A model generated the notes under the pieces. That model searched no databases, had not been told where the DNA came from, and saw only the letters and a list, made by a program, of their open reading frames with translations. Shown piece after piece: positions 8,645 to 26,075 of a stretch of 64,000 bases of DNA. The translations under genes and the position numbers were made by a program. The stretch is from an uncultured Cytophagia bacterium. Its GTDB lineage: Bacteria > Zhuqueibacterota > Zhuqueibacteria > Residuimicrobiales > Residuimicrobiaceae. Every line of letters starts with the position of its first letter. Position 1 is the first letter of the stretch. The stretch covers positions 4,070-68,069 of the forward strand of contig CAYLWO010000002.1 in assembly GCA_964387285.1 (NCBI GenBank), written 5' to 3'.

Positions 8645-8786
8645 CTATGCCTCCAAAACAAAGCTTTATTTATTTTGGATGTTCTATGCACCCAATATAA
8701 ATAATTTTTACATCAATTACGCTTTTTCAATCACGTTTTGTCCACAAATATATTTTCAAGCGCTTTTTACAGTGTCTTTCCGAGTA

Positions 8787-11769: not shown

Positions 11770-12534
11770 TCAACCCTTGAACTGTTTCATCTTTTCGTAC
11801 TGTTTTAATATTTCACCCATATAGGTCGGCACATCATCCGGCAAAATGCCGTTAGGGCGTCCTTCCTTGATCCATTGACTGGCCCGCCACTCGCCGACGC
11901 GACGTGCAGCCAAAGCGCCATCCACGCCATAAATATCGATAAGAGCTGCCAAATATCGCGTACCAATACGAATATTAAGGATGGGATTCAACAAAATCTC
12001 GTCCGGAGTCACCCAGTTCAAATTCATATTACGTGCAATGTAGGACCCGGTAATCGGCATTACCTGCATGAGACCCATGGCGCCTTCTCGCGAGATCATC
12101 TCCGGATTCCAGGTCCCGTTGGTTTCAAAGGTGATGATGGCGCAGACCAAATGTACGTCCAGGCTGGTGTATTGCAAGCTGGCGTCATATATTTCACGCG
12201 CCACGTCGTACTTTAACGGGCCGGGCATTGTTTGGTTATACTGCGAAATGAGGGCGCTAATCCGCGCAATATTAAACTGTCGCAAACTCTCGATATTCAT
12301 CGAGGCGCGTTGGCCTTTAATCACCTCTTCCAATTCGGTAATCTTTTTCAGATAGCGATTGTTATAGGTATATTTGATGCCGACTGCGACAATAATTAAC
12401 AACGCCAACGCCGACAACACCCAGATGGCATGGCGCAGATAATGCATGAATTTTTCTTCATTGAATAGCATTTTACGCTCCCATAAAAATTGAACTGCTG
12501 CCATAAAAATACAAAATTGCCGTGATTCTATCAA
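11770..12534 (-). CDS. Membrane-anchored lytic transglycosylase (SLT domain)
   Basis: N-terminal TM helix. SLT catalytic region EGAMGLMQVMPITGSYIA. Confidence 0.75.
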   Translation of the reverse strand: MIESRQFCIFMAAVQFLWERKMLFNEEKFMHYLRHAIWVLSALALLIIVAVGIKYTYNNRYLKKITELEEVIKGQRASMNIESLRQFNIARISALISQYNQTMPGPLKYDVAREIYDASLQYTSLDVHLVCAIITFETNGTWNPEMISREGAMGLMQVMPITGSYIARNMNLNWVTPDEILLNPILNIRIGTRYLAALIDIYGVDGALAARRVGEWRASQWIKEGRPNGILPDDVPTYMGEILKQYEKMKQFKG

Positions 12535-12607: not shown

Positions 12608-13708
12608 ATGGAAGCGTTAATGATCCTTGCATCTTTTATTGCTTTACTACTCTATGCCGGCATATTGCTCTGGCTGTACTTTGGCCTGGAGCGTCGTCAA
12701 CCACAGGCGCCTGTGCAGAAAGAAAAAATAACTGTTATCATTGCCGTGCGCAATCGCCGCGAAGAATTGCTGCGCTGTCTGCAAGCCTTGGCCAATCAGG
12801 AATATGACCGCCCTTACAACGTTATTATCGTAGACGATCATTCGACAGACGGTACGTTTGAAATCACAGAACAGTTTCTCCAACACCATTCAGACTGGCG
12901 AATCATTCATGCCGAGTCTTCATCCGCATGCGCCAGTTCGAAAAGAGCCGCTTTACATCAAGCTATTCTACAAGCAGAAGGCGAATGGCTAGTCTTTACG
13001 GATGCGGATTGTATTCCCCCAGTCACATGGTTGTCCGGCTTGAGCGGGTATTTTTCAGCAGAGACGGTTTTGGTGGCAGGATTTTCTCCGCAAGTCAGCG
13101 CCGGAAAAAGCGGGTGGAGCAACGTACTGCTTATCGATAGTCTATCCGCGGCACTGGTATCTGCAGCGACCATTGGCCGACAATACGGCGTTACCGGCGT
13201 TGGCCGCAACCTAGCCTATCGTCGCTCAGCTTGGAACAAAATTTCCGGATTTGACGCCTTGCCGGATACCTTGTCCGGGGATGATGATTTTATCATTCAG
13301 GAATTAAGTCGGCACGGTCGCGTACAGTATTGTCTGTCCCCGGAAGCGGTCGTCCCGGCACAAGGACCGTCTGACCTGCGTGAATTTTTGTGGCAAAAAC
13401 AGCGCCATCTTTCCAGCGGGCAATTTTATCCACTGCCGGCTAAAATTGCTTATAGCGCTTATCACAGTACAAACTTGCTGCTCTGGCCGCTCTTTTTCTT
13501 CGGTCTATGGAATCACTGGCTATTTTATCCTCTTTTGTGCAAATGGGTGCTCGACTTTTATGTTCTCCAGGACCTGGCAAAACGGTTGCAGCAGAAAATA
13601 CGCTGCCTGCCTTTTTTGATTTGGCAGGGAATTTTTGTATTTTATAACATCCGGGCAGGCTGGCAGCGATTTCGACCTCCGCCCACCTGGCAGGCAGATG
13701 GACCGTGA
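12608..13708 (+). CDS. Membrane GT2 glycosyltransferase, ceramide-glucosyltransferase/HpnI-like (GT21-like) paralog 1
   Basis: N-TM, VIIAVRNRREEL...VIIVDDHSTDGT (D1/D2), FTDADC, SGDDDF (D3), QKQRH (QxxRW-like) and C-terminal TM helices. Confidence 0.75.
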   Translation: MEALMILASFIALLLYAGILLWLYFGLERRQPQAPVQKEKITVIIAVRNRREELLRCLQALANQEYDRPYNVIIVDDHSTDGTFEITEQFLQHHSDWRIIHAESSSACASSKRAALHQAILQAEGEWLVFTDADCIPPVTWLSGLSGYFSAETVLVAGFSPQVSAGKSGWSNVLLIDSLSAALVSAATIGRQYGVTGVGRNLAYRRSAWNKISGFDALPDTLSGDDDFIIQELSRHGRVQYCLSPEAVVPAQGPSDLREFLWQKQRHLSSGQFYPLPAKIAYSAYHSTNLLLWPLFFFGLWNHWLFYPLLCKWVLDFYVLQDLAKRLQQKIRCLPFLIWQGIFVFYNIRAGWQRFRPPPTWQADGP

Positions 13709-14511
13709 GAAAAAAAATTAACGAAATACTGTGGTCCGAATATCAGGCTGCGATGCTGCATCGCGGCTGGTTAATTGCCGAAATTTTAGAAAAACGACTC
13801 GATTTAGCCGGCGCCCGAATAGCGGATTTGGGATGCGGCCATGGCGGCGCATCGCTGCAACTAGCCGAACGAGGGGCAGTTGTGGCCGCAGTCGATCGTC
13901 GAGCAGATACGGCAGCGCAACTCCAGGAGATGGCGCAAAAGAAAAAACTGACCGTTACCGTTCATGCTGCCGACATAGAAACCTGGCAGCCGCAAACTCC
14001 TGTGGATGCTGTTGTGCTGTGGGATGTACTGGAACATATTGCCCATCCCTTACTGCTGTTGCAGCATATCCGACGATTTCTCAAACCGAAAGGATTTTTA
14101 CTTTTGGCTACGCCGAATAAATGGTCACCGCTCAATCTGCTCTGCGATCCGCACTATAGTTTGCCCGGTATAGCTTGCTGCAAACGCACCCGTGTCTATA
14201 AAATCGTCGTGCAACGCTTGCATTGGTTTGCACCGGAGAAAACAGATATTGCACAATTAATTTCCTGGCGTGAATTACACGCCCTTTTACATGGCGCCGG
14301 TTTTAATTATGACTGGGTGGTTAAAGAGGTCTCAGAACTGGCTCTACAGAATCCGGCCAGCATATGGAACCGGCCTTGGCATTTACGATTGATTCACCTG
14401 ATAATGAACATGCGTCTGTCGCGCATCGTTCTCTCTGCGGCGCCGAAAAAACCGGGCTTGCTTAACCAAAGGCTTTTACCGACCTTTTATGTGCTGGCGA
14501 GTAAACGGTGA
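13705..14511 (+). CDS. Class I SAM-dependent methyltransferase
   Basis: Motif I DLGCGHGGASLQLA, post-I acidic VDRRAD, motif II VDAVVLWDVLEH. GTG start overlaps the upstream stop (GTGA). Confidence 0.75.
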   Translation: MRKKINEILWSEYQAAMLHRGWLIAEILEKRLDLAGARIADLGCGHGGASLQLAERGAVVAAVDRRADTAAQLQEMAQKKKLTVTVHAADIETWQPQTPVDAVVLWDVLEHIAHPLLLLQHIRRFLKPKGFLLLATPNKWSPLNLLCDPHYSLPGIACCKRTRVYKIVVQRLHWFAPEKTDIAQLISWRELHALLHGAGFNYDWVVKEVSELALQNPASIWNRPWHLRLIHLIMNMRLSRIVLSAAPKKPGLLNQRLLPTFYVLASKR

Positions 14512-15518
14512 AAGAACTTCCGATCAGAGCAATATTGAAAAGCATCACACGGTATCGCCTGAATAATGCGTTAAAACTGAGCGCCGGCTTTATTTTTTCA
14601 AAATTGCTGGGTTATCCATTTGTTTGGGGCCAGCCTTTTGTGGTGACGATAGAGCCAACCAATCTCTGCAATCTGGCCTGTCCACAGTGCGCGGTCGGCG
14701 CCGGAGTCTTGACGCGCCCTCGCGGCCAAATGCCGCTGGATCTCTATCGTGACATTTTAGAACAGATGCATCGTTCCCTCTGCTATTTACTGCTATACGA
14801 TCAGGGCGAACCGCTGTTGCATACGGACTATTGCGAAATGATTCGATTAGCAAAAGCCAAAAACATGGCCGTCACCTGCAGCAGCAACGGTCAATTGCTT
14901 GGCGATAAAGATATAGCCCGTTGCCTGGTCGCTTCCGGGCTGGACAACCTGATTATCTCCATCGACGGTTTGACGGAACAAACGTACCAAACCTATCGAA
15001 AAGGCGGGCAACTGTCTAAAGCAATCCAGGCAATCAAAAATGTTCAACAGGCTCGAAGCATTCTCAAAACAAAAACACCGCGAATTTGCGTTCAATTTCT
15101 GGTTACAAAACATAATGAAACCGAATTGCCGCACCTGGCTGAAGCGGTTCGCGACTGGGGGGCTGATCTACTGCTGATAAAAAGCATGCAGATTTGCACA
15201 CCGGCTGATGCTGAACAGTGGCTGCCGCGGCAGGAAAAATATCGCCGGTATCGAACCCGGAACAATCAACTGGTTACAAAAAAAAGAAACCGCATATGCC
15301 CCCGCTTGTGGTACAGCAGCGTCATACATCAGGACGGCAGCGTGGTGGCTTGTTGCTTTGACAAAGACAATCAATTCGTTCTCGGCCGCATGACCGAGAC
15401 GCCGTTTACACAACTCTGGCACGGTTCCGCTTTACAGGCATTGCGTACGGCTGTGCTGAATAAAACCAAACCAAATTTATGTAGAAATTGCACAAATGGA
15501 CTGGCGCTTTACAAATAA
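14508..15518 (+). CDS. Radical SAM protein, MoaA/HpnH-like with Cys-rich C-terminal (SPASM/twitch-like) domain, paralog 1
   Basis: EPTNLCNLACPQC (Cx3Cx2C) and GEPLLH. C-term CPRLW...VVACCFD...LCRNC. The GTGA overlap with the upstream gene indicates coupling. Confidence 0.7.
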   Translation: MKELPIRAILKSITRYRLNNALKLSAGFIFSKLLGYPFVWGQPFVVTIEPTNLCNLACPQCAVGAGVLTRPRGQMPLDLYRDILEQMHRSLCYLLLYDQGEPLLHTDYCEMIRLAKAKNMAVTCSSNGQLLGDKDIARCLVASGLDNLIISIDGLTEQTYQTYRKGGQLSKAIQAIKNVQQARSILKTKTPRICVQFLVTKHNETELPHLAEAVRDWGADLLLIKSMQICTPADAEQWLPRQEKYRRYRTRNNQLVTKKRNRICPRLWYSSVIHQDGSVVACCFDKDNQFVLGRMTETPFTQLWHGSALQALRTAVLNKTKPNLCRNCTNGLALYK

Positions 15519-16470
15519 AAAAACCGTCATCTTTTGGATCAAAGGCGTGATTGCCGTTTGCGTTCTCGCACTTTTGGTGCGGCGCATCAGTTGGCGCGCT
15601 CTGCTGGAGGCTGTATATCAGGCGCAGGCAGAATGGATTATCGCAGCGGCCCTTTTATTGATTCCCAATATTTTTTGTCAGTTTAAACGCTGGCAACTCA
15701 TCACCCGACAGCTCCATCCGGATACGTCGAATCCGGTGGTGGCGCGTTCTCTTTTTGCCGGCATCACTCTCGGTTTTATCACGCCCGGCCGCATCGGCGA
15801 TCTGGGGCGAACGATTTTTATTCCACAGGCCAATTGGCTTGGATTGGTCGGTTTGATGTTGGTGGAAAAATGGTATAGCCTGCTGATCATTTACTGGTTC
15901 GGCTTATTAGGCATCATTCCCATCCTGTCGACCGCGTTTAAACTGGAACTGTGGATCCCGGCCGTGCTGACCGGACTGATTATGATTTTGGCCGGCATCA
16001 GCCTGGTGTTGCATCCGGGATTTTTAAATTATATTCTCAAACGCTTCGACAAAGCGAGAAAAAGAAAACGACTGCATCAGGTCTTTGCCGGCATCAATGC
16101 CTTGACGCCAAAATTGTCCCTCCAGCTTTTGCTTTATACCCTGATACAGGTCCTCGTTTATTTCGGACAATTCTACCTTCTCGTGAGAGCATTTACCCCC
16201 TTGCCGCTCTTGCGGGGCTTGGCAGCCGTCGCGGCGATCATGTGGAGTAAAACCCTGCTGCCCATTTCTCTAGGCGATCTGGGCGTGCGTGAAAGCGCAG
16301 CCGTTTATTTCCTCGGCAAATTGCATACGCCCGCAGCCGTTGCGTTTGACAGCGCCTTACTCTTGTTCGCCATCAATATTTTACTGCCGGCCATTATCGG
16401 CTTTGTGGTATTGCTGCAGAGTCGAATCTTGCAAAATGGGCCCGGTAAAACCATGAGGTCACGGTGCTGA
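15496..16470 (+). CDS. Flippase-like integral membrane protein (lysylphosphatidylglycerol-synthase TM-region / UPF0104 family)
   Basis: About 8 predicted TM helices. Conserved FITPGRIGDLGRT motif. 23-nt overlap with the upstream gene. Confidence 0.6.
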   Translation: MDWRFTNKKTVIFWIKGVIAVCVLALLVRRISWRALLEAVYQAQAEWIIAAALLLIPNIFCQFKRWQLITRQLHPDTSNPVVARSLFAGITLGFITPGRIGDLGRTIFIPQANWLGLVGLMLVEKWYSLLIIYWFGLLGIIPILSTAFKLELWIPAVLTGLIMILAGISLVLHPGFLNYILKRFDKARKRKRLHQVFAGINALTPKLSLQLLLYTLIQVLVYFGQFYLLVRAFTPLPLLRGLAAVAAIMWSKTLLPISLGDLGVRESAAVYFLGKLHTPAAVAFDSALLLFAINILLPAIIGFVVLLQSRILQNGPGKTMRSRC

Positions 16471-17579
16471 TATATTATCTCGTTATTTCTCTAGTATACA
16501 TTTTATTTATCGCCTGGATATACAAGGGGATTCAGCAGTTAAATGAACAAAAGGTAAATTTTCAACAACCGATTGTCAATGTCATCGTTCCAGCGCGCAA
16601 TGAAGCCGCAAATCTTGCCGAATGTCTAACGCATTTAAAGCAACAGAGTTATCCGGCACATCGTTACGAAATCATCGTCGTCGATGACGGCTCTGTTGAT
16701 GAAACAGGCAGGATAGCAAAAGAGCAGGGCGTTCGCTGCCTGACTCTGGATGTTATTCCCAAGGGCTGGTCGCCCAAAAAGGCCGCCCTGGCCCTGGCGA
16801 TCCGCAACAGCAATGCAGAAATTATTCTAACCACCGATGCGGATTGCCGTGCGCCGCGGGAATGGATCGAATCCATGATCCGTCATTTCACGGCCGATGT
16901 CGGCGTTGTGGCTTCGTGGGTTGGGATTGCCGAAACAGGCTCCTTGCTGGCGCGTTTAGAAGCTCTGGATACGCTTTCGTATCAAATGATTGGCGCTGCG
17001 GCCATCGGACACGGAAAACCTTTTTTGGCTAACGGCGCCAATTGGGGGTACAGACGCGAGCTTTATGCTGAGGTCAACGGCTTTAGCGGCATCGAATCAT
17101 TGGCCTCCGGCGACGATGATCTGTTACTGCAAAAAATGGCGCAAAACGGCAAATGGCGCGCAGCCTTCAGCAACGAATCAAGCACGCGCCTTATCACCAA
17201 AAGCTGCACGTCCTGGTCCGGCTTTTTCATGCAGCGCCTGCGCTGGGCTTCCAAGAGCCATCGTTATCCGCTATCCGTTATTCTTTTGGAAGGATTTATT
17301 TTTATTTACCATTCTTCCCTGTGGTTGGTATTGGTCTTAAAAATTAACTCGCCGCTCTGGTTTTTATTTCTTCTGGTTAAACTGGTCAGCGATGCTCTAT
17401 TGGTTCGCACGGTGATGCAAAACATCAATTTTAAATTTCACTGCTTCGATATGCTGCTGGCCCAGATCGGACAGATGATTTACACGGTTATCCTCGGCTT
17501 GCTGGCGTGGCGCGGCCGCTTTGTCTGGAAAAATCGTGTTTATAATCGCGGTACGCTGGTTGAAGAAAAAAGGGTTTGA
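16464..17579 (+). CDS. Membrane GT2 glycosyltransferase, GT21-like paralog 2
   Basis: VNVIVPARNEAANL, IIVVDDGSVDET, TTDADC, SGDDDLL, QRLRWASK and C-terminal TMs. GTG start overlaps the upstream stop. Confidence 0.75.
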   Translation: MLIYYLVISLVYILFIAWIYKGIQQLNEQKVNFQQPIVNVIVPARNEAANLAECLTHLKQQSYPAHRYEIIVVDDGSVDETGRIAKEQGVRCLTLDVIPKGWSPKKAALALAIRNSNAEIILTTDADCRAPREWIESMIRHFTADVGVVASWVGIAETGSLLARLEALDTLSYQMIGAAAIGHGKPFLANGANWGYRRELYAEVNGFSGIESLASGDDDLLLQKMAQNGKWRAAFSNESSTRLITKSCTSWSGFFMQRLRWASKSHRYPLSVILLEGFIFIYHSSLWLVLVLKINSPLWFLFLLVKLVSDALLVRTVMQNINFKFHCFDMLLAQIGQMIYTVILGLLAWRGRFVWKNRVYNRGTLVEEKRV

Positions 17580-17638
17580 AAAAAAGCTCTTGTTTGATAT
17601 ATTTAGCTGAATGGCACGATAGGCGCCCGCAAAACAAC

Positions 17639-17666
17639 CTTGCGAAGGTTTAGAGCCTTCGCCAAG
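17639..17666. terminator. REP-like palindromic hairpin (family C/D copy 1), possible internal terminator/attenuator
   Basis: cttgcgaaggtttagagccttcgccaag is a near-perfect inverted repeat, about 60 nt after the GT2 paralog 2 stop. It is near-identical to 51447-51474. No strong T-run follows. Confidence 0.4.
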
Positions 17667-17725
17667 ATAATACAATCGTTCAGTTCTGGTAAATAATATT
17701 TTGACACCCGTTTTGGGATTATCGA

Positions 17726-19288
17726 ATGAAACACATTCTTGCCATAACCATCATTTCATATTCGCTGCTCTTTTCGGCCCCCCCCAGTTCCGTGAATGTG
17801 CCGAATGACTATTGGGGATATGGTTTTCTGGAACGTATGGAAACCAAGGGACTGTTGAAAAGTTACCAGCTTTGTACCCGCCCTGTTTCGCGTACGATCT
17901 TTGCCGAACTGTTGCGGCAGACGACAGAACAATTGCAGCGCAATGCCGCAATTCTGAGCAAAACGGATCAGCAATTGCTCGAGCAGCTCCAGGGCGATTT
18001 TTACGATGAACTGCATCCTGTCTCATCCGAGCGCGGTCCCGAACGCCATTTTACCAGTTGGAAAGAAGGGCAAAGCCGTTTGCATATCGATCTGTATGGC
18101 AAACAGTCCATCATCTCCAATCGTGGCCAGCAATATGAAACCAGCGAGTTGATCTCTGAAACCTCTCTCGGCGCCATCCTGCGCGGCTCGCTCAGCAACA
18201 CCATCGGATTTTATCTGGATGCGCGCAATGCACTCACCCGCGGCAAGGATGAAATATTGGAAGAAAATTTCGATCCGTCTCAGGGCTCGCCGGTGGTGAT
18301 TTCCGGTTCAAACGTTTTTCAGGATCGCGCGCTCGCTTACTGGACCTGGCAGAATGCCTGGCTGCGCCTGCAAATGGGCCGTGACGAATTGCAATGGGGA
18401 CCGGGATATCATGCCGGTCTTTCCATCTCCGGCAACATGCCGGCAACAGAAATGATCCGCCTCAGCGCCTCCTTTCGTCGTTTTAAATTCAGCTACATTC
18501 ACGCCTTTCTGCGCAGCAGTCTCGGCCCTAAATATCTGGCCGGTCATCGCCTGGATTACATGGTCAAACCCGGCCTCTATTTCGGCGCATCGGAAACGGT
18601 TATTTATGGCCAACGCGACGTCGAGTTCGCCTATCTCAATCCCATCATGCCGATTCATGTCGCGCAACACCATCTGGGCGACAAGGACAACAAGACCATG
18701 AGTTTGGATGCGACCTGCACGCTGGTCCGCAACTGCAAACTGTATCTGGAATATTTCATCGACGACATGACCAGCAGTGAGAGTTTGACCAAATTCTACG
18801 GCAACAAATTCGCCTTTCTGACCGGAATTCTTTGGACCGATCCGTTGCATATCGCCAATACCGATCTTCGCTGCGAATACTCGCACGTCGAGCCGTACGT
18901 CTATACACACTGGGATTCCATCAACATCTACACCAACTATGACCAGATCATCGGCCACTGGTTGGGGCCTAATGCAGACTGTCTCTTCATACAGGCCGGC
19001 TGGCAACCTTTGCGCGATTTTCGCGTCGAGTTTTTTTGGGAACAGCAGCGCAACGGCGCCGGCAACGCGGACACGCGCACCAGACCTGAACAAGGCATGA
19101 CCAAGCAATTTTTGGGCGGCGTGGTGGAAAAGAAAAAAATGATCGGTTTAAAACTGGTCGAACAGATACGTCGCGATATGTTTGCCTCAGTCAGTTATAC
19201 CTACTGTGATACCCGCAACCTGCATCGCCAGGCTGGTAAAACCTCCTTTGATCATCTGGCCCGCTTTGAATTCTGGTTAAATTATTGA
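17726..19288 (+). CDS. Outer-membrane beta-barrel protein, possibly Wzi-like capsule/glycan anchoring family
   Basis: Signal peptide MKHILAITIISYSLLFSA. N-terminal helical region PNDYWGYGFLERMETKGLL. Aromatic-rich amphipathic strands. C-terminal ...FEFWLNY. Confidence 0.45.
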   Translation: MKHILAITIISYSLLFSAPPSSVNVPNDYWGYGFLERMETKGLLKSYQLCTRPVSRTIFAELLRQTTEQLQRNAAILSKTDQQLLEQLQGDFYDELHPVSSERGPERHFTSWKEGQSRLHIDLYGKQSIISNRGQQYETSELISETSLGAILRGSLSNTIGFYLDARNALTRGKDEILEENFDPSQGSPVVISGSNVFQDRALAYWTWQNAWLRLQMGRDELQWGPGYHAGLSISGNMPATEMIRLSASFRRFKFSYIHAFLRSSLGPKYLAGHRLDYMVKPGLYFGASETVIYGQRDVEFAYLNPIMPIHVAQHHLGDKDNKTMSLDATCTLVRNCKLYLEYFIDDMTSSESLTKFYGNKFAFLTGILWTDPLHIANTDLRCEYSHVEPYVYTHWDSINIYTNYDQIIGHWLGPNADCLFIQAGWQPLRDFRVEFFWEQQRNGAGNADTRTRPEQGMTKQFLGGVVEKKKMIGLKLVEQIRRDMFASVSYTYCDTRNLHRQAGKTSFDHLARFEFWLNY

Positions 19289-19295
19289 TCCGGCC

Positions 19296-20411
19296 TTGAT
19301 AATAATTTTCTACATAACCTGCGGAATGACGGCCATTTACGGCTTGTGCCTCATACTGTTCTCCCTGGGATTGCTGCGCAGGCAGAACAAAAGTGTATTA
19401 CAACCCTTTGTTTCTGTAATTGTAGCTTGTCGCAATGAACAGGAAAATATTACACCCCTGTTGCATGCCTTGACCCGGCAAAATTACCCATCTACGCGCT
19501 TTGAAATTGTCCTGGCCAATGACGCCTCTACAGACGAAACAGGGCAACGGATCAGCGCTTTTTTTAAGACCAATCCCAGTGTTGCTATTAAAAAAATCTC
19601 CGTGCAGAACCGCGATCAGGCGGCTTCGCCCAAAAAAAATGCGCTGAGTCAGGCGATTGCATTTTCTACAGGAGAGGTGCTGCTTTTTACAGATGCCGAT
19701 TGTCGGCCAGGCCCGGACTGGATCGCAAGTATCGTCCAATATTTCTCGCCAGATGTTGGCATGGTTATCGGTTTCTCGCCGTATGAATTGCCTTCGCTGC
19801 AGGGCATTGGGCAACGATTGCTGGCCATAGAGTCCCTATCCCTCGCAGCTCTGGCTGCCGGCACAACCGGATGGGGACGGCCGGCCACCTGTACCGGTCG
19901 CAATCTCGCCTATCGCAGAAAAGTTTATGATGAATTGGGCGGATTCAAGGAAATTGCGCAATTTGTATCCGGCGACGACGATTTGTTTTTAAAACTGGTC
20001 GTGCAACGCACGCGCTATCGGGTAAGATACGCGTTGGACAGCCGCGCGGTTGTGCCGACTCTAATTTTGACAAATGGCCGGCATTTTTTTCAACAACGTT
20101 TGCGCCACGCTTCCAAAGGTTTTCACTATGGCTGGCGCATGACCTCTGTGCTGGCCGGCGCCTGGTTGTACAATTTTTTGTTGTTGGGATTGCTGTTAAC
20201 TCCGTGGCGCGGATATGCCATTATGCTTTTCCTGGTAAAAGCCTTTTCAGAATTACCGCTCCTGCTGGGTTTTGCAGCAAAAATGAACAGAGTATCCTAT
20301 TTTACCGTTTGGCCGTTGGCTGCTTTTTTGCATATTTGTTACGTCGTGGTCATTGGCGCATTGGGACCGTTCCTGAAATTCAATTGGAAAGAGATCAGGG
20401 TTCATTCATGA
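19296..20411 (+). CDS. Membrane GT2 glycosyltransferase, GT21-like paralog 3
   Basis: VSVIVACRNEQENI, FTDADC, SGDDDLF, QQRLRH and C-terminal TMs. Confidence 0.75.
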   Translation: MIIIFYITCGMTAIYGLCLILFSLGLLRRQNKSVLQPFVSVIVACRNEQENITPLLHALTRQNYPSTRFEIVLANDASTDETGQRISAFFKTNPSVAIKKISVQNRDQAASPKKNALSQAIAFSTGEVLLFTDADCRPGPDWIASIVQYFSPDVGMVIGFSPYELPSLQGIGQRLLAIESLSLAALAAGTTGWGRPATCTGRNLAYRRKVYDELGGFKEIAQFVSGDDDLFLKLVVQRTRYRVRYALDSRAVVPTLILTNGRHFFQQRLRHASKGFHYGWRMTSVLAGAWLYNFLLLGLLLTPWRGYAIMLFLVKAFSELPLLLGFAAKMNRVSYFTVWPLAAFLHICYVVVIGALGPFLKFNWKEIRVHS

Positions 20412-21556
20412 TTGGCTTGTCCTACATCGTCCTGGCGTTGACGATTGTTTACGGAATAATCCTTCTGGTCTTTATTGTTGCGCTACGCTTTCCGAGTAAG
20501 GCAAACAGCCCTTTGCAGCCGCGTGTTTCCATCATTGTTGCTGCGCGCAACGAAGAAGCCAACATTGCCGCGCTGCTGGAGGATTTGGTGCAGCAGGATT
20601 ATCCGGCTGAATATGAAATCATTATCGCCAACGACGGTTCAACCGATGGCACGGCTCATCTGGTCAACGGGTTTTGCACCCGCTTTGCCAATATCCATCT
20701 ACTCAATATCGATGAGGCGCCGGCAGGATTCAGTCCGAAAAAATATGCCTTACAATGCGCAGTGGAAAAATCAACCGGCGAGATCATTCTGGCCACGGAC
20801 GCAGATTGTCGCGTGGGACCGGGCTGGATTTCCGGCATGGTTGCTTATTTTGCGCCCGAGGTGGGTTTTGTTATCGGTTTTTCGCAATATGGCAGACCGG
20901 GGCAAAAACAAAAACTGGTGGAACGGTTTCAAGCGTTCGATTTTGTCACGCTCATGGCTGTGGCAGCGGCCAGTACGCATCTGCGCATTCCCATGGCAGC
21001 CTCGGGACAAAATCTGGGCTATCGTCGCGCCGCGTTCATTCAGGTGGACGGCTATCGTTCCATCAGCCATCGCATGTCCGGCGACGATGTCCTACTCATG
21101 CAATTGATTCGCCGTCGCACGGATTATCGTATTTTATACGCTTCGGACCCGCGCACGTATGCTGTGTCAGCGCCGCAACCCACCTGGCCCGCTTTTATCA
21201 ATCAACGCAACCGCTGGGCCTCTAATGGCGGCTATCAATTGCTGTTGAGCCCCTTGTTCTTTAGCTATCTGGTTTTCACCTTTTCCTATAATTTGGCGCT
21301 GCTGCTTGGCCTCTCACTTTACGGCGCCGGTGTTCTTGGCGGATGGGGCATGCCGCTCTGCTTTCTGGCCAAAGGATTTTTTGAATTTTGTGTGGCTTGT
21401 AGCGGTTGCAGATATTTTCAGCGATCTGATCTGCTGAAATATTTTCCTCTGTGGTTTCTACTGCAGATTCCCTATATTGTTCTGGTCGGCGCCATGGGTT
21501 CTTTGGGATTATTTCGCTGGAAGGGCCGCAAAGGCGCGACAAGGATCCGGGCATAG
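20408..21556 (+). CDS. Membrane GT2 glycosyltransferase, GT21-like paralog 4
   Basis: Start ATG overlaps the paralog 3 stop (ATGA). VSIIVAARNEEANI, ATDADC, SGDDVLL, NQRNRWAS. The longer ORF from 20204 was rejected because it overlaps the paralog 3 coding region. Confidence 0.7.
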   Translation: MIGLSYIVLALTIVYGIILLVFIVALRFPSKANSPLQPRVSIIVAARNEEANIAALLEDLVQQDYPAEYEIIIANDGSTDGTAHLVNGFCTRFANIHLLNIDEAPAGFSPKKYALQCAVEKSTGEIILATDADCRVGPGWISGMVAYFAPEVGFVIGFSQYGRPGQKQKLVERFQAFDFVTLMAVAAASTHLRIPMAASGQNLGYRRAAFIQVDGYRSISHRMSGDDVLLMQLIRRRTDYRILYASDPRTYAVSAPQPTWPAFINQRNRWASNGGYQLLLSPLFFSYLVFTFSYNLALLLGLSLYGAGVLGGWGMPLCFLAKGFFEFCVACSGCRYFQRSDLLKYFPLWFLLQIPYIVLVGAMGSLGLFRWKGRKGATRIRA

Positions 21557-22076
21557 CCAAAGGCTGTTTATTTTTTTTCGTTATAATAATAAATGACGTT
21601 CAATGATGCTGTAAGAAATTTATGATCTATTCCCCCATAGTCGCCCAGATGTTTGATGCGACCGGCGAAGTTCTTTTGCACCTGCATCTCGATGCCAATC
21701 TTGTTAAATCTATATCCTGCCGCTAAAATAAAACCGGTAAAGCAAGATAAGCTTCAGCCCAATCCGCATTTACAATCTGTGACCAGTTGCTATAATATGC
21801 CGTTCTATTTTCCACTCTGGCTCCGCGTAGTAGAATTTCCATCCCATAGACCAGCGAAAGGTATTTTTTTGCAAACTCTCGACGCCTATGCCCATGGAAT
21901 ACCTTAATAGTGGTTTGGAAGAGGTGTCGTAAAATTTGGAGCAATTAACGCTGCCGGAAATAAAAAGGGCGAGCCGGCTCGGGTTTCAGAAAAACGAAGC
22001 AACATCAGGAATAGAAACAAAATGCTTTCTAAAACCGTCTGAAAACCGTAAATTCTGCACTGATTTGAGGAAGAGC

Positions 22077-23132
22077 ATGAGCGCACCGATACAGCTGCTA
22101 AACAATCTGTTACATCGCCGGCCGGTCAACTCGAGCACGGAAATCCGTCTGACCCGCCTGTGCACGCAACGCTGCCGGCAGTGTCGCGTTTACGAACGGG
22201 AAACCCAGCCGGCCAGCATGAGTCTGGAACAATTTCAAATGATCCGGCGGCGGTTGCGTGAATACGGTGCCTGGCTCGGCTTTATCTCCGGCGGCGAAGC
22301 GTTGCTGGCGCCGGATCTGTTGCCCATCCTGGCAGAGGCGAAAAAGACCTTTCGCTGCGCCACCACCCTGGTCACAGGGCTTTACCATCAACGTCAACGG
22401 GTATTGGAAGCGGCCGAGTTTTGCCTGGCAAACAATATCAACATCCAGACCTCCATGGACGGCATCGGCCCTGTGGGTAATTACTTGCGCGGCGTCAAGA
22501 ATTTTAGCGATACCGTGCTGGAGCATATGGCCTTAATCAGCGCCATGAAAAAAAATTCTCAATCGCTGCTCTACGCAAACATTGTGCTCAACAACCTGAA
22601 TCGCAACCAGGTTCCGGATCTGATCCGGCGCTGCCGCGGCCTGGGTTGGCGCGTCACCATCGGCCTGTATCACAACCTTACCGAGACCACACGCAGAGAC
22701 GACGAGTTGCGTATTACACCGGATGAACAACTTGATCAACTGCTGGCTTTTCTGGATCACAATCCGGATATTTTGAATTTAAATTCATTCATTCGCGGCA
22801 TCGGCCCGTTTTTACGCAGCGGGAAAACGACACGTTGTCCCTTTGTCGCCGGCCGCATCTGGATGACGCGCACCACCATCATGGAAAACGGCGACCTGCA
22901 TCTGTGTTGGGGCGGCCCCATCGGCAATCTTTTCTCCTCTTCCCTGCGGGAAATATTCCACAGCTCCGTTTATACCGACCGCCTGGCTGCTTACGACCGC
23001 TGTGCCGGCTGTTGGACCACCTGCTACACGCAACGGCTGTTGCTCTTGCGTCCTCGCTCCCTGACCGAATTACGAGACAACATCGTCAAGATGATCCACC
23101 TGCGTCGTTATCAACAGGAGCGGCCGGCGTGA
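22077..23132 (+). CDS. Radical SAM protein with Cys-rich C-terminal domain, paralog 2
   Basis: RLCTQRCRQC (Cx3Cx2C), ISGGEALL. C-term CPFVAG...LHLCWGG...CAGCWTTC. Start chosen at the ATG preceded by GAGGAAGAG. The ORF-track start at 21936 lacks an RBS. Confidence 0.65.
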   Translation: MSAPIQLLNNLLHRRPVNSSTEIRLTRLCTQRCRQCRVYERETQPASMSLEQFQMIRRRLREYGAWLGFISGGEALLAPDLLPILAEAKKTFRCATTLVTGLYHQRQRVLEAAEFCLANNINIQTSMDGIGPVGNYLRGVKNFSDTVLEHMALISAMKKNSQSLLYANIVLNNLNRNQVPDLIRRCRGLGWRVTIGLYHNLTETTRRDDELRITPDEQLDQLLAFLDHNPDILNLNSFIRGIGPFLRSGKTTRCPFVAGRIWMTRTTIMENGDLHLCWGGPIGNLFSSSLREIFHSSVYTDRLAAYDRCAGCWTTCYTQRLLLLRPRSLTELRDNIVKMIHLRRYQQERPA

Positions 23133-23899
23133 AAAAATTTTTATTTCTTTTACTGATCGCCGGCGTAGCCGGCAGTGGTGAAAAAGTGCGATTCATCGGC
23201 CATGCTGATTTAAATCGATTTATTGGCGAACAACTGGATTTCTCCTTGTCCTTGCGCGGGGTCAGCGCAGCCAAGGCGCGCATGCTTTGCGACACCCTCG
23301 GTATCGACCGCTGGCTTATCTCAGCCGACATATCGACAAAATTCTGGGCTGATCTGGTTTTCCCAGTGCACAATATTTACCAGACCTTTCTCGATCGCCG
23401 CGACGGCCGCACTGCAGAGACCTATAAAAAAATCAAACAAAAAAATCTTGGCCAGGAGATGCATGTCGTTTTTGATTATAAACAAAAGCAGGCGACCGGT
23501 TATTCGGATGGCAGCCGCACCATTCGCGATTCCCTGCAAACCCTCTTTGCCATGCTCTATCACTTGCGCGCCATGGATTTGTCTTTACATGATTCTGTCT
23601 TCTGTTTATTGGAAATTGAATCACAGTGGTGGCAAGTAGCCGGGAAAGTCAGACAGGGAGAAAAAACCACCGGACCTTTTTCTCGTCTCGAGGTCCGCGA
23701 TGTGGTGCTTACTTTTTCCCCTCACGGCGCGGTTGTTGCCCGTCCCTGGAAAACCGATTTGCTGACCAATCGCATTGCCCGCAGCGGCCGGTTGCTCATC
23801 CGGCTGGGGCCTGCGCCGGAGAATTTGCCAATATGGATACAGATCGGCGAGGCCAAACAGACCGTGACGCTCAAATTGAACAGCTGTAAAAAGGTGTAA
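23129..23899 (+). CDS. Secreted hypothetical protein (possibly DUF3108-like)
   Basis: GTG start overlapping the upstream stop (GTGA). Signal peptide VKKFLFLLLIAGVAGSG. About 256 aa, no catalytic motif recognised. Confidence 0.4.
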   Translation: MKKFLFLLLIAGVAGSGEKVRFIGHADLNRFIGEQLDFSLSLRGVSAAKARMLCDTLGIDRWLISADISTKFWADLVFPVHNIYQTFLDRRDGRTAETYKKIKQKNLGQEMHVVFDYKQKQATGYSDGSRTIRDSLQTLFAMLYHLRAMDLSLHDSVFCLLEIESQWWQVAGKVRQGEKTTGPFSRLEVRDVVLTFSPHGAVVARPWKTDLLTNRIARSGRLLIRLGPAPENLPIWIQIGEAKQTVTLKLNSCKKV

Positions 23900-23902
23900 T
23901 GC

Positions 23903-25030
23903 ATGGTCACGCTCATCCATATATTTTGCGCCATCCTCTATCTTTTAGTAGGCATCGCTATCCTGTTGCTGCTGAAAAAAAGCTGGCCACAAAAAAAGTC
24001 TGTGGAACCGGTTCTGGCCTCTGTCATCATTGCCGGACGCAATGAAGCGCCGCATTGGCCGGCCTGTTTGGACGCTTTGGCAAATTTGGATTATCCGACG
24101 GACAAATTGGAAATCATCCTGGTTGACGATGCCTCCCGCGATCACTCCTTGTCGCTTTTGCGTGCGTTTGCGCAACAGCGTCCGTTTGTACGCGTCATCT
24201 CCCTTTCTGTGGAAGCGAAAGAATTGGCCGGCAAGGCCGGCGCGGTTTTGCCGGCCATCGAATCCAGCAAGGGCGAAATTATCTTTGTCACGGATGCCGA
24301 TTGTCAAGTTCCGCAAAACTGGATTTTAAGTCACCTTTCCTTCTTTACTGATGAGGTGGGATTGGTCGGCGGCCTGACTTTGCTGGATCAACCGCGTCAC
24401 AAGTATGGCGCTTTTCAGCGTATCCAATCCCTGGATTGGTTGTTCCTGCTGTCGGTCGCCTTTGCGGCCGGCCGTATCGGCAGACCCCTGAGTTGGATGG
24501 GCAACAACATGGCCTTTCGTCGCACAGCGTATCACGCGGTGGGCGGCTATCGTTCGCTGGCCAGCCATTTAATCGAAGATTTCAGTCTGATGGACGCGAT
24601 GGTCCGGCAGACTCCGTGGCGGGTTGTTTTACACACCCAGGCCTCGGCCATGGTGCTAAGCTGCGCTGAAAAAACCGTGACCGGGCTTTATCGACAGCGT
24701 CGGCGTTGGGCCCTGGGCGTACGACCGGTGCGCCTGTTGGGTAAAGGCTTGTTGTCGGTTTTTTATATCAGCCACATGCTGGTTTGGTTGGCGTTGGTTT
24801 GCAGCCAGACAACAGGATGGCTGCTATTTATCGTCATCCTCGCAACAGATGCAGCCATTCTGATCACAGCTGCCGGACCGATCAACCGGCATGATCTGTT
24901 GAAATGGCTGCCTAGCTTGCAATTGTATTATTTCCTGGCAATCTTGTTGCTGCCGCCGATTCTTTTATTCGATAAAAAAATCATCTGGAAGGACAAGGTC
25001 TACCATTCAATGGATCAAAGTGTCCGCTGA
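23903..25030 (+). CDS. Membrane GT2 glycosyltransferase, GT21-like paralog 5 (divergent D3 motif EDF)
   Basis: ASVIIAGRNEAPHW, IILVDDASRDH, VTDADC, LIEDFSLMDAM (resembles the AEDYF region of ceramide glucosyltransferase), RQRRRWALG, C-terminal TMs. Confidence 0.75.
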   Translation: MVTLIHIFCAILYLLVGIAILLLLKKSWPQKKSVEPVLASVIIAGRNEAPHWPACLDALANLDYPTDKLEIILVDDASRDHSLSLLRAFAQQRPFVRVISLSVEAKELAGKAGAVLPAIESSKGEIIFVTDADCQVPQNWILSHLSFFTDEVGLVGGLTLLDQPRHKYGAFQRIQSLDWLFLLSVAFAAGRIGRPLSWMGNNMAFRRTAYHAVGGYRSLASHLIEDFSLMDAMVRQTPWRVVLHTQASAMVLSCAEKTVTGLYRQRRRWALGVRPVRLLGKGLLSVFYISHMLVWLALVCSQTTGWLLFIVILATDAAILITAAGPINRHDLLKWLPSLQLYYFLAILLLPPILLFDKKIIWKDKVYHSMDQSVR

Positions 25031-25073
25031 TAACAACCTGGTTGTCTAGTGCGTATTTAAGCCGGAATCGATC

Positions 25074-26075
25074 ATGTCGCTTTTGCCGCCGCTTTTGCTG
25101 CATTATTATATTACTTATCGTTGCAATTGTCGCTGTCGTTTTTGCGAAATCTGGCAAATGAATGATCCCGCAGAAGCTGATCCGGCAGTTGTCCGGCTGC
25201 GCCTACGGCAGGCCAAACAGCTCGGCGTCCGCTTTGTGGATTTCACCGGCGGTGAACCGTTACTGCATCCTGATCTGCCGGATATGTTGAAAGCGGCCCA
25301 AGAGCTGGGCCTTAAAACCACCATCACCACCAACGCAGCGCTTTATCCACAACGGGCCGGCGAGTTGGCAGGTTTGGTGGATTTTTTGCATTTCTCCCTG
25401 GATGCTGCTGAGGCTGATATGCATAATCGCTTGCGCGGCGCTATCATTTTTGACACCGTTGTAGAGAGCCTGGATATTGCTCGAGCTCTGGGCGAACGAC
25501 CTGATATCACCTTTACCGCTAATGAAGAGAACCTCTCGCAACTTGCCTTGTTATCGCAAGTTGCAGAAGCGCTTGCGCTGGTGCTTGTGGTCAATCCGGT
25601 ATTTGGTCAAGAGGCACTTTCAGAGCAAGCTCTGAACTATATCGAGCAGTATAAACAACATCCTTACGTCTATATCAATCCAGCCTTTCACCGTTTGCGC
25701 AGAAGGGGCGGCAATCAAACAGATCATCCCCGTTGTCGCGTCATGGATGCGGTGATCGTCATTCTGCCGGATGATCAACTGGCTGTTCCCTGTTTTCATT
25801 TCAATCAGACGCGACGCCCCATTTCCCATTTAAAGGTCATGCAAGACGAAAAGTGGTTTAAAGATATCAAAAGGCAACAGGGAAAATTTCCGACTTGTCA
25901 GGGGTGTGTGCTGAACTGTTATTTTGATCCATCTTTTCTTTATGTTCCGGATTTACTGTTTTATGAAAGCATGCAAGCGAAATTACGCTACGCCTGGCTC
26001 AAATATCTGAAACCGGATCAGAAACCAACGCAATCGGCGGGCAAACTGTTTTCTCAACTGGTCAACAAACCATGA
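25074..26075 (+). CDS. Radical SAM protein with Cys-rich C-terminal domain, paralog 3
   Basis: YRCNCRCRFC (Cx3Cx2C), FTGGEPLLHPDL. C-term CRVMDAV...VPCFHF...CQGCVLNC. Confidence 0.7.
   Translation: MSLLPPLLLHYYITYRCNCRCRFCEIWQMNDPAEADPAVVRLRLRQAKQLGVRFVDFTGGEPLLHPDLPDMLKAAQELGLKTTITTNAALYPQRAGELAGLVDFLHFSLDAAEADMHNRLRGAIIFDTVVESLDIARALGERPDITFTANEENLSQLALLSQVAEALALVLVVNPVFGQEALSEQALNYIEQYKQHPYVYINPAFHRLRRRGGNQTDHPRCRVMDAVIVILPDDQLAVPCFHFNQTRRPISHLKVMQDEKWFKDIKRQQGKFPTCQGCVLNCYFDPSFLYVPDLLFYESMQAKLRYAWLKYLKPDQKPTQSAGKLFSQLVNKP

Follow-up and report, generated by a model that had tools for sequence, protein, structure and literature searches.

A conserved KSB1 gene locus that pairs radical SAM enzymes, candidate sugar-tailoring enzymes of an envelope glycoconjugate, with membrane glycosyltransferases

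A run of 13 genes (12608–27661, plus strand) in the genome of a KSB1 (Zhuqueibacterota) bacterium, a member of an uncultured phylum, contains three radical SAM genes (rA, rB and rC), each paired with a particular gene for a membrane GT2 glycosyltransferase. We favor, with moderate confidence, the explanation that this locus, conserved in KSB1 and neighboring members of the FCB group, functions in glycoconjugate assembly, and that each radical SAM enzyme tailors a sugar by radical chemistry. Besides the three radical SAM genes, the run comprises five GT2 genes and genes for a methyltransferase, an MprF-type flippase-like protein, a Wzi-like protein, a DUF3108 protein and a PHP-type hydrolase. 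Within the searchable literature, no paper describes this locus.

Organization and conservation of the locus

The genes lie in a window of 64,000 nt and most are tightly packed, with junctions of −4, −4, −23, −7, +7, −4, −4, +3 and −4 nt (negative values denote overlaps). An initial annotation of the window placed the radical SAM genes in one operon. The 13 same-strand genes and the overlaps of 4–23 nt at most junctions agree with this assignment, but a 520-nt non-coding gap (21557–22076) separates the fourth GT2 gene from rB, and contains a terminator-like hairpin (21553–21567) followed by a T run, as well as a promoter-like site (TTTACA-16-TATAAT, 21769–21796). The gap is also found in an independent assembly and is specific to the lineage of the window; in most relatives, unlike in the window, the GT2 gene and rB are adjacent, and in two loci (L001 and L066) the junction is occupied by a gene for a 706-aa secreted protein.

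The gene order is shared by KSB1, Calditrichota, Zixibacteria and Gemmatimonadota. Because it recurs across dozens of species-level genomes of these four phyla, the cluster represents more than a chance arrangement. More distant relatives of rA adjoin a Wzi-GT21-GT21 group, and one archaeal relative of rA is located among genes for a UDP-glucose dehydrogenase, an epimerase, an aminotransferase and glycosyltransferases. Two sets of contexts argue against sugar tailoring: orthologues of rB (47–53% identity) in MAGs labelled Bacteroidota are found in variable, unrelated contexts devoid of GT2 genes, and homologues of rC in Latescibacteria and on one JGI contig lie outside such clusters. The homologue matches of the three radical SAM families include no cultured organism.

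The methyltransferase gene (13705–14511) encodes a class I SAM-dependent enzyme (Pfam Methyltransf_23, 80 bits) and overlaps both the first GT2 gene and rA by 4 nt. The flippase-like protein (15496–16470) matches the MprF-type TM domain LPG_synthase_TM over its full length (PF03706, 80.8 bits) and has about six or more TM segments in a hydropathy scan; it reaches no NCBIfam cutoff, with faint matches to TIGR00374 (16.9 bits versus a cutoff of 43.2) and MprF (14.8 versus 600). The Wzi-like outer-membrane protein (17726–19288; Caps_assemb_Wzi, 70.1 bits versus a Pfam cutoff of 30.1) and the DUF3108 protein (23129–23899; PF11306, 31.9 bits versus a cutoff of 26) both carry a signal-peptide-like N-terminus. 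In most KSB1 loci, a Wzi-like gene precedes the GT2-GT2-rB group. The DUF3108 gene overlaps rB by 4 nt; the order DUF3108-GT2-rC recurs in L078 and L079, and in L077 an unannotated 253-aa ORF takes the DUF3108 position. The PHP-type (CehA/McbA-like) metallohydrolase (26072–27661) scores 73.9 bits with NCBIfam NF038032, whose cutoff is 80, and has no Pfam match and no PDB sequence match. Its gene overlaps rC by 4 nt and is kept at the cluster end in KSB1, Zixibacteria and Gemmatimonadota. Genes for nucleotide-sugar synthesis, a priming phosphoglycosyltransferase, Wzx/Wzy, an ABC exporter or a ligase are absent from the 13-gene locus.

Membrane GT2 enzymes and their radical SAM partners

The five GT2 genes are the true paralogue set of the locus, with 26–38% identity over 266–376 residues (BLASTP, E 1e-23 to 1e-70). 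Their products are membrane-bound, GT21-like GT2 enzymes, a type that glycosylates lipids, in line with their earlier description as lipid glycosyltransferases; TM-like segments number one at the N-terminus and up to three at the C-terminus. Specifically, GT2-1 (12608–13708; Pfam Glycos_transf_2 83 bits, Glyco_transf_21 36 bits), in which only the N-terminal TM helix is detected, reaches no NCBIfam cutoff (MftF 85 versus 280, HpnB 57 versus 379). GT2-2 (16464–17579; 88.6 and 53.9 bits with the same two Pfam models) carries a QxxRW motif and four TM segments, of which one is N-terminal and three are C-terminal, and its top NCBIfam match is PgaC/IcaA (84 versus 422). GT2-3 (19296–20411; 79.8 and 52.1 bits) is 38% identical to GT2-4 (20408–21556; 76.6 and 55.6 bits), which starts at an ATG at 20408, is 382 aa long in an independent gene call, and has the membrane mannosyltransferase 6yv7 as its top PDB match (E 3e-12). 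GT2-5 (23903–25030; 73 and 58.4 bits) scores 84 versus 422 with PgaC and 81 versus 310 with HpnI.

Each radical SAM gene is paired with a particular GT2 gene, giving the groups GT2-1–methyltransferase–rA, GT2-4–rB and GT2-5–rC. A GT2 gene of the GT2-4 type lies directly upstream of rB, within 300 nt, in 48 of 71 loci, and one of the GT2-5 type immediately precedes rC in 14 of 15; the methyltransferase gene directly precedes rA in 13 of 23.

The radical SAM enzymes belong to a twitch/short-SPASM class

All three radical SAM genes are on the plus strand and contain the Cys boxes initially reported for them. The product of rA (14508–15518; 336 aa, GTG start) matches Pfam Radical_SAM at 52.9 bits (cutoff 29.5) and SPASM at 51.4 bits. 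Its Cys box, CNLACPQC, spans residues 54–61 (core cysteines C54, C58 and C61), and the cysteines of its C-terminal twitch/short-SPASM domain (C264, C282, C283, C325 and C328) are invariant in 21 homologues. Among PDB sequences it matches BlsE (E 3e-11) and the twitch region of BtrN (E 3e-6), and it reaches no NCBIfam cutoff, the top model being W_rSAM_matur (122 versus 380).

The product of rB (22077–23132; 351 aa; Radical_SAM 32.2 bits) also has a Pfam SPASM match. The mechanical ORF extends back to a TTG at 21936, and the start at 22077 is supported by homologues and by a gene call made independently on a different assembly. The Cys box, CTQRCRQC, spans residues 29–36 (C29, C33 and C36), and the family-invariant cysteines of the C-terminal twitch-like domain are C254, C277, C309, C312 and C316. 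The protein is a member of a small, sharply bounded orphan family. The product of rC (25074–26075; 333 aa; Radical_SAM 77.5 bits) has the Cys box CNCRCRFC at residues 17–24 (C17, C21 and C24) and a twitch-like domain with family-invariant cysteines C221, C240, C275, C278 and C282; its top PDB sequence match is BlsE (E 2e-13).

Each family has five invariant C-terminal cysteines, which profile-profile alignments place in register across the three families, and the initial description of the proteins as alike in architecture but divergent is therefore correct. The C-terminal pattern given there, CxxW...G...C...CxxC, is approximate: rA reads CxxxW and rC lacks the W. The three genes are paralogous at the superfamily level only, with 21–30% identity over 69–149 core residues (BLASTP, E 6e-3 to 2e-9). 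In all three proteins, Pfam reports no domain beyond Radical_SAM and SPASM, the radical SAM core starts at about residue 6–45, and a hydropathy scan finds no TM segment, as in soluble proteins. They are distantly related enzymes of the twitch/short-SPASM class, each with one predicted extra iron-sulfur cluster, and not HpnH-like. Their fold neighbors include SkfB, SuiB, ChlB, PqqE, CteB and anSME, with MqnE, taken as a structural stand-in for HpnH, a distant neighbor. Since the closest of these include the peptide maturases SkfB, SuiB and PqqE, the fold by itself does not point to a sugar substrate.

Comparison with characterized systems

The best solved sequence relative of rA and rC is BlsE, the cytosylglucuronate decarboxylase of blasticidin S biosynthesis (PDB 7vob). 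It, too, is a small member of the superfamily whose C-terminus carries a Cys motif (CxCxxC), and it takes hydrogen from a sugar ring (PMC3715490). The motifs here, in contrast, are C...C...CxxCxxxC and C...CC...CxxC, identity is 17–20%, and rA and rC reach 49.6 and 59.4 bits, respectively, with the NCBIfam BlsE model, versus a cutoff of 400. Furthermore, the BlsE substrate is a soluble nucleoside of an antibiotic pathway, and BlsE is not encoded beside membrane GT2 genes. BtrN, the twitch-domain dehydrogenase of butirosin biosynthesis (PDB 4m7s and 4m7t), contains one auxiliary-cluster domain and acts on an aminocyclitol/sugar. Its twitch region aligns with residues 259–330 of rA, and the aligned part takes in the ...PC... 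strand as well as the CxxC at the end, although the match is limited to the C-terminal domain and the BtrN chains are shorter (269–270 residues).

Precedents for the remodelling of a lipid-bound sugar by a glycosyltransferase and a radical SAM enzyme are HpnI/HpnK/HpnJ(/HpnL) and the Sulfolobus calditol synthase Cds, in which a hexose is put on a membrane lipid and then ring-contracted to a cyclitol by the radical SAM enzyme (review, PMC13459092). Here, similarly, a GT21-like GT2 gene is followed directly by a radical SAM gene, and a flippase-like TM protein is encoded; however, the GT2 enzymes score 39–81 bits versus the HpnI cutoff of 310, and there is no HpnK-type deacetylase gene and no hopanoid core gene. 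HpnJ has a B12-binding domain, for which the radical SAM proteins here have no Pfam match. The systems are alike in the logic of the pathway and not as members of one family. The mycofactocin system also combines a SPASM radical SAM enzyme, a GT2 enzyme and a methyltransferase, with weak matches here to MftC (72 versus 265), MftF (85 versus 280) and MftM (34 versus 200), but the locus lacks MftA, B, D and E, its GT2 enzymes are integral membrane proteins, and it encodes outer-membrane components.

Alternative explanations

The initial annotation took the three proteins for HpnH/MqnE-type adenosyl transferases that attach the 5′-deoxyadenosyl radical to an olefin in some isoprenoid or lipid other than a hopanoid, with C–C bond formation occurring three times, a reading to which we give hardly any credence. 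The proteins share with HpnH the radical SAM superfamily and a similar length, and HpnH (TIGR03470) is among the many weak NCBIfam matches of rA (42.2 bits) and rC (45.8 bits), but the cutoff of 225 is about five times as high. Its rank is 20th for rA and 14th for rC (19 and 13 families score higher), and it is not within the 25 best matches of rB; on membership of an HpnH/MqnE-like clade, the profile scores thus go against the adenosylation claim. The C-terminal cysteines, for which auxiliary sites had been anticipated, are indeed invariant and align to the auxiliary-cluster region of BtrN, but an auxiliary cluster marks the SPASM/twitch class, not adenosylation, and this cysteine set indicates a subclass different from HpnH. 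To our knowledge, the characterized twitch/SPASM enzymes abstract hydrogen. Hopanoid loci carry a flippase-like gene, HpnL, and the flippase-like gene here, together with the weak HpnI and HpnB matches of the GT2 genes (39–81 bits) and a DGGGP-synthase-like UbiA prenyltransferase gene 4 kb downstream, would fit adenosylation. The locus nevertheless has no HpnG-, SHC- or squalene-synthase-type gene; as initially noted, no squalene-hopene cyclase occurs among the window ORFs scanned, and the sole PNP-family gene (50568–51407) passes purine nucleoside phosphorylase cutoffs and adjoins nucleoside kinase genes. The radical SAM enzymes could instead modify the anchor lipid in the manner of Tes, Mss, Gms and Grs, for example by C–C coupling between alkyl or isoprenoid chains or by cyclising or methylating such chains, with the GT2 enzymes making the head group only. 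We regard this as quite unlikely: rB reaches 22.5 bits with the Tes model, whose cutoff is 450, and the proteins have 333–351 residues versus 526 in the solved GDGT-MAS chain and 486 positions in the Tes model. They also have only five conserved C-terminal cysteines, whereas Tes and Gms are described as having complete SPASM domains that hold two auxiliary clusters (PMC13459092). Lipid-modifying SPASM radical SAM enzymes are, however, a growing class (PMC13459092), and FCB-group bacteria carry DGGGP-synthase-like UbiA genes (PMC7852524), as nearby in the window; that gene, though, is part of an other-strand housekeeping block (MurC-RodZ-Maf-Dtd-UbiA) whose linkage to the cluster is confined to close relatives.

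A maturase role, in a RiPP-type pathway, in a mycofactocin-like pathway for a glycosylated cofactor or on a cluster-encoded protein, would agree with the fold neighbors, with the match of the rB profile to SkfB (E 4e-13), with the weak Mft matches and with the "metalloenzyme maturase" models that top the rA matches (122 and 110 bits). We judge it decidedly improbable, as there is no space for a conserved precursor-peptide ORF (GT2-4 and rB abut in most loci, and the 520-nt gap is lineage-specific), no N-terminal RRE (peptide-recognition) extension is evident in the three proteins, the locus has no peptidase, MftA/B/D/E or transporter gene, and the Mft scores are far under their cutoffs. Finally, the enzymes might modify soluble nucleotide-sugar donors ahead of the transfer step and thereby supply the partner GT2 enzymes with unusual sugars, instead of remodelling a lipid-bound product. 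BlsE, DesII and viperin have nucleoside- or nucleotide-linked substrates, the N-terminal half of rC matches a prokaryotic viperin (62 bits), and the radical SAM proteins are soluble. In addition, a UDP-glucose dehydrogenase gene is located near homologues in L074 and L077, and sugar diversity needs some source, as no further gene for modifying sugar nucleotides is present in the locus. We still consider action on donors unlikely, because the matches, including those to the BlsE model, are far under family cutoffs; the strict order from GT2 to radical SAM gene is compatible with either pathway direction.

Proposed function of the locus

The evidence favors sugar tailoring, close to an option that the initial annotation had listed second, namely SPASM-type enzymes that modify sugars or lipids, for example epimerases or dehydratases; the neighboring GT2 enzymes are membrane-bound and GT21-like. 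According to the proposed mechanism, the five membrane GT2 enzymes would add sugars on the cytoplasmic face, and each radical SAM enzyme would use a canonical CX3CX2C SAM cluster and a twitch domain in which the five invariant cysteines hold one auxiliary [4Fe-4S] cluster. The 5′-deoxyadenosyl radical would take a hydrogen atom off a carbon of the sugar residue installed by the partner GT2 enzyme, or of the activated precursor of that residue, with oxidation, epimerisation, decarboxylation, deoxygenation or ring contraction as candidate outcomes. The class I methyltransferase may O-methylate the product, the MprF-type flippase-like protein may carry it across the inner membrane, and its handling in the outer envelope may fall to the Wzi-like and DUF3108 proteins, perhaps joined by the PHP-type hydrolase. 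The product of the locus is most likely a glycoconjugate anchored in the membrane and directed to the surface, probably either a glycolipid or a lipid-linked oligosaccharide.

A 13-gene run with five membrane glycosyltransferases and three radical SAM proteins

A run of 13 genes, annotated with Pfam and NCBIfam, occupies positions 12608–27661 on the + strand. It encodes, in order, a GT2 glycosyltransferase (GT2 no. 1, 12608–13708), a class I SAM methyltransferase (13705–14511), radical SAM protein A (rA, 14508–15518), an LPG_synthase_TM (MprF-type) flippase-like membrane protein (15496–16470), GT2 no. 2 (16464–17579), a Wzi-like protein (17726–19288), GT2 no. 3 (19296–20411), GT2 no. 4 (20408–21556), radical SAM protein B (rB, 22077–23132), a DUF3108 protein (23129–23899), GT2 no. 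5 (23903–25030), radical SAM protein C (rC, 25074–26075) and a PHP-type CehA/McbA-like metallohydrolase (26072–27661). Most neighbouring genes overlap or almost abut, the successive junctions measuring −4, −4, −23, −7, +146, +7, −4, +520, −4, +3, +43 and −4 nt. The run is bounded on the GT2 no. 1 side by a divergent SLT lytic transglycosylase gene (11770–12534, − strand), and on the PHP side by a convergent MurC-RodZ-Maf-Dtd-UbiA block (28220–32439, − strand), an arrangement shared only by the closer relatives within KSB1. The UbiA-family prenyltransferase of this block (31597–32439, − strand) finds its best matches, over its full length, in archaeal-type DGGGP-synthase models (NF009523, 218 bits against a cutoff of 269; NF009521, 206 against 296); DGGGP-synthase-like UbiA homologues are known in FCB-group bacteria (PMC7852524).

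The 520-nt non-coding gap between GT2 no. 4 and rB (21557–22076) contains a terminator-like hairpin with a T run (21553–21567) and a promoter-like TTTACA-16-TATAAT (21769–21796), so the run may form two transcription units in this organism. The gap and the gene calls are identical in an independent assembly. Comparison of 52 loci showed that this junction is variable, with no gap in most other loci and a gap of 2.7 kb in the two closest species-level relatives (L001 and L066); in L001 the gap holds a gene (7675–9795) for a 706-aa secreted protein, the C-terminus of which resembles a secretion-sorting tail. Rfam and tRNA scans of the window gave no matches.

All five GT2 proteins match PF00535 (73–89 bits) and PF13506 (Glyco_transf_21, 36–58 bits). 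A QRLRW, QRNRW or QRRRW motif is visible in nos. 2, 4 and 5, and QxxRH in nos. 1 and 3; all five have one N-terminal TM-like segment and four have two or three C-terminal ones. Pfam scores, (Q/R)xxRW-type motif and flanking TM helices together identify them as GT2/GT21-like membrane glycosyltransferases, and none reaches a specific NCBIfam cutoff. Among solved structures, the minimal membrane mannosyltransferase 6yv7 is closest to them, and ceramide glucosyltransferase ranks lower in the list. Such a build is typical of enzymes that glycosylate membrane-embedded acceptors, including ceramide, hopanoids, carotenoids, diacylglycerol and polyprenyl-linked glycans.

Among the envelope components, the Wzi-like protein exceeds the PF14052 cutoff (70.1 against 30.1 bits, residues 207–506), and both it and the DUF3108 protein have signal-peptide-like N-termini. 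PDB sequence searches with the Wzi-like protein and the PHP hydrolase gave nothing useful. The locus is without genes for sugar-nucleotide synthesis, a priming transferase, Wzx/Wzy or an ABC exporter.

Other parts of the window contain further genes. Upstream (3961–8644, − strand), a second set of glycan-related genes encodes a WbqC-like protein, a glycosyltransferase of the GT4 family (Glycos_transf_1) and a right-handed beta-helix protein of 831 aa. The window also has a fourth radical SAM gene (46038–47126, − strand), which is of the spore-photoproduct-lyase type (PF20903, 104 bits; TIGR04070, 104 bits, cutoff 400) and shares 4 nt with a neighbouring gene whose product has a ParB N-terminal domain (47123–48106, − strand). 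No Pfam match at E ≤ 1e-3 was obtained for a 691-aa ORF (41475–43550, − strand) or for three consecutive ORFs of 253, 494 and 379 aa (58903–62307, − strand).

rA, rB and rC are predicted SPASM/twitch proteins

All three proteins contain the CX3CX2C motif and exceed the Pfam Radical_SAM cutoff (PF04055; 52.9, 32.2 and 77.5 bits for rA, rB and rC, against 29.5), and the Cys boxes quoted in the initial annotation are exact. We aligned each family, using 21 sequences for rA (identity down to 33%), 17 for rB (down to 55%) and 20 for rC (down to 46%). Within each alignment, all CX3CX2C cysteines are fully conserved, as are five C-terminal ones, which form the patterns C264...C282 C283...C325xxC328 in rA, C254...C277...C309xxC312xxxC316 in rB and C221...C240...C275xxC278xxxC282 in rC. 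A Pfam SPASM domain is detected in rA at 51 bits and in rB at 22.5 bits; the scan of the three proteins shows no domains beyond Radical_SAM and SPASM.

Profile-profile comparison aligns the core and the C-terminal domain of the three families (probabilities 97.9–99.5%, E 5e-13 to 1e-22) with the C-terminal cysteines in register, and the initial description of the proteins as sharing one architecture while being divergent is therefore correct. The term "paralogous", in contrast, was too strong. Direct BLASTP gives 21–30% identity over 69–149 core residues (E 6e-3 to 2e-9), which rules out recent paralogy and leaves homology at the profile level only. The five GT2 genes share 26–38% mutual identity over nearly their full length and, judged by these identities, constitute the genuine paralogues of the locus.

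The defining feature of the SPASM/twitch branch is a domain, C-terminal to the radical SAM core, in which conserved cysteines are available for one or more auxiliary [4Fe-4S] clusters. rA, rB and rC each have such a domain, with a putative auxiliary cluster, and by sequence all three are placed in this branch. A full SPASM domain, with two auxiliary clusters, carries the seven-cysteine motif CX9-15GX4C...CX2CX5CX3C...C. Because each family conserves only five C-terminal cysteines, and the CX2CX5CX3C block occurs in none of the three alignments, a one-cluster twitch or twitch-like domain fits better than full SPASM.

None of the three proteins reaches a curated NCBIfam family cutoff. The best match of rA is a "tungsten cofactor oxidoreductase maturase" model (122 bits against 380) and that of rB is the archaeal PTO1314 family (41.7 against 306), while rC matches StsB (86 against 625) and then PTO1314 (81.4 against 306). 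In the PDB, the closest sequence relative of rA and rC is the sugar decarboxylase BlsE (E 3e-11 and 2e-13), and the rA C-terminus, including its final CxxC, matches the twitch region of BtrN; the closest match to the rB profile is SkfB. Despite high fold similarity, rA and rC are only 17–20% identical to BlsE and score 49.6 and 59.4 bits on its family model (TIGR04466, cutoff 400). An exhaustive profile search of 1.84 billion proteins defines rB as a small family with a sharp limit, 24 representatives in all at E ≤ 1e-30, beyond which scores drop to generic levels and the next neighbours are likewise unnamed.

Each radical SAM gene is associated with a membrane GT2

The closest homologues are labelled KSB1 or "Candidatus Zhuqueibacterota", and none of the matches comes from a cultured organism. 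The rB profile, run against a single genome of each species, yielded 72 loci. In KSB1 the recurring order is (methyltransferase, rA, flippase-like) GT2, Wzi, GT2, GT2, rB (DUF3108, GT2, rC, PHP). Zixibacteria loci have the order GT2-rB-rA-flippase-DUF3108-PHP, and one Gemmatimonadota chromosome has GT2-GT2-rB-flippase-DUF3108-PHP. In 48 of 71 loci, a GT2 of the no. 4 type ends at most 300 nt 5′ of rB. The gene immediately upstream of rC is a GT2 of the no. 5 type in 14 of 15 loci, and the one immediately upstream of rA is a methyltransferase gene in 13 of 23. In addition, three sub-modules occur on their own: rA-Wzi-GT21-GT21; Wzi-GT-(253-aa ORF, no Pfam match)-GT-rC; and DUF3108-GT21-rC, followed by a 538-aa protein. 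The recurring order, the pairing counts and the stand-alone sub-modules indicate that chance does not explain why each radical SAM gene is found with a membrane GT2, and the locus behaves as three GT2-radical SAM modules plus envelope components.

There are exceptions to this pairing. rB orthologues (47–53% identity) occur in unrelated contexts in MAGs labelled Bacteroidota, and two rC homologues lie outside GT2-type clusters. In the Bacteroidota-labelled MAGs, rB has no GT2 neighbours and often follows the gene for a conserved protein, about 195 aa long (L049, 9234–9818; L052, 9212–9802; L054, 9234–9821; L061, 9261–9671), which has a signal-peptide-like N-terminus and is 61–71% identical among three loci; the L049 protein, the one scanned, has no Pfam match. 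In a Latescibacteria locus (L076), the genes flanking the rC homologue comprise two URO-D-like genes and a further radical SAM gene. The window has a URO-D/MtaA-like gene 5 kb downstream of the cluster (32565–33650, + strand), and the presence of URO-D-like genes in both places may be a coincidence.

Alternative functions of rA, rB and rC

The initial annotation proposed that three HpnH-like enzymes carry out repeated C-C bond-forming adenosylation of a non-hopanoid isoprenoid or lipid. In HpnH- and MqnE-type adenosylation, the 5′-deoxyadenosyl radical adds to a substrate double bond, giving an adenosylated product and no 5′-dA. Against the curated HpnH equivalog cutoff of 225 bits (TIGR03470), rA and rC score 42.2 and 45.8 bits, far down both lists, and HpnH is not among the best 25 families for rB, the weakest of which scores 18.5 bits. 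The genomic context of HpnH, squalene-hopene cyclase plus hpnG, is likewise missing from the locus. In agreement with the initial remark that no hopanoid cyclase lies nearby, five Pfam scans found no hopanoid or isoprenoid cyclase domain in any scanned window ORF, and the PNP family is represented only by a gene 25 kb away that matches purine nucleoside phosphorylase at equivalog level. Membership of the HpnH family is thus essentially excluded and the mechanism gains no positive support, making HpnH-type adenosylation by these proteins highly improbable. The label "MoaA-like" holds in the broad COG sense only (the JGI label is "MoaA/NifB/PqqE/SkfB family"), since scores on the GTP 3′,8-cyclase model (TIGR02666, cutoff 284) are 62.2, 19.1 and 57.9 bits for rA, rB and rC.

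The fold neighbours of rA, rB and rC would also be compatible with peptide maturases, but the locus has no precursor gene, peptidase or exporter, the proteins have no evident N-terminal recognition extension, and GT2 and rB normally abut. We looked for a precursor ORF within the 520-nt gap 5′ of rB and examined this junction across the 52 loci; the gap is lineage-specific, and a RiPP reading for rB is unsupported. A mycofactocin-like system was rejected as well, with scores far under the cutoffs (MftC 72 bits against 265, MftF 85 against 280, MftM 34 against 200) and the remaining Mft genes absent; the locus encodes neither a small precursor nor an RRE protein or peptidase. Modification of lipid chains, in the manner of Tes, Gms or Grs, is a further rival, for which moderate similarity to GDGT-MAS and the DGGGP-synthase-like UbiA gene 4 kb downstream can be cited. 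However, the three proteins are far shorter than Tes and are apparently without a second auxiliary cluster, and UbiA is part of a housekeeping block encoded on the opposite strand. On the tetraether synthase model itself (NF045702, cutoff 450), rB scores 22.5 bits, and the family is not in the best 25 for rA or rC.

A proposed envelope glycoconjugate pathway

We are left with a conserved, uncharacterised locus for a probable envelope glycoconjugate, comprising three GT2/twitch-radical SAM pairs, and our literature search found no paper describing it. The flippase-like protein and the two signal-peptide-like proteins, together with the missing nucleotide-sugar, priming, Wzx/Wzy and ABC genes, lead us to propose that the locus specifies a membrane-anchored glycoconjugate that would be flipped and presented in the outer envelope. 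Each soluble radical SAM enzyme, following one GT2, is then most plausibly a hydrogen-abstracting tailoring enzyme for sugars, close to the alternative of sugar-modifying SPASM enzymes that the initial annotation had also offered. The conservation, the pairing, the fold class, the motifs and the gene content are observations, and the substrate class, the chemistry and the binding of an auxiliary cluster are inferred. Its target could be either the lipid-bound product or the activated donor. The lipid-bound case would resemble the successive action of HpnI, HpnK and HpnJ, or the Cds route in which hexosyl-GDGT is converted to calditol (PMC13459092), and the donor case would resemble BlsE (PMC3715490).

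A more specific proposal, which we regard as unlikely, is that the three pairs make a multiply radical-remodelled head group on a KSB1 envelope membrane lipid, with sugars that are possibly carbocyclic (cyclitol- or calditol-like), decarboxylated or deoxygenated, and a lipid that is possibly an isoprenoid ether supplied by the nearby DGGGP-synthase-like enzyme. If true, the system would represent a three-fold bacterial equivalent of HpnI/HpnJ and of the calditol synthase of archaea, and would establish a new outer-envelope glycolipid class in FCB-group candidate phyla.

If the general reading of a glycoconjugate locus is right, the cluster encodes an undescribed envelope pathway conserved across the uncultured phyla KSB1/Zhuqueibacterota, Calditrichota, Zixibacteria and Gemmatimonadota, and includes three uncharacterised twitch-type radical SAM families, of which rB is a sharply bounded orphan. 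Sugar-remodelling radical SAM enzymes form a small group with uncommon chemistry. Three additional members, each with a clear glycosyltransferase partner, would lend themselves to reconstitution in a heterologous host, and the product may be a lipid biomarker for these sediment bacteria.
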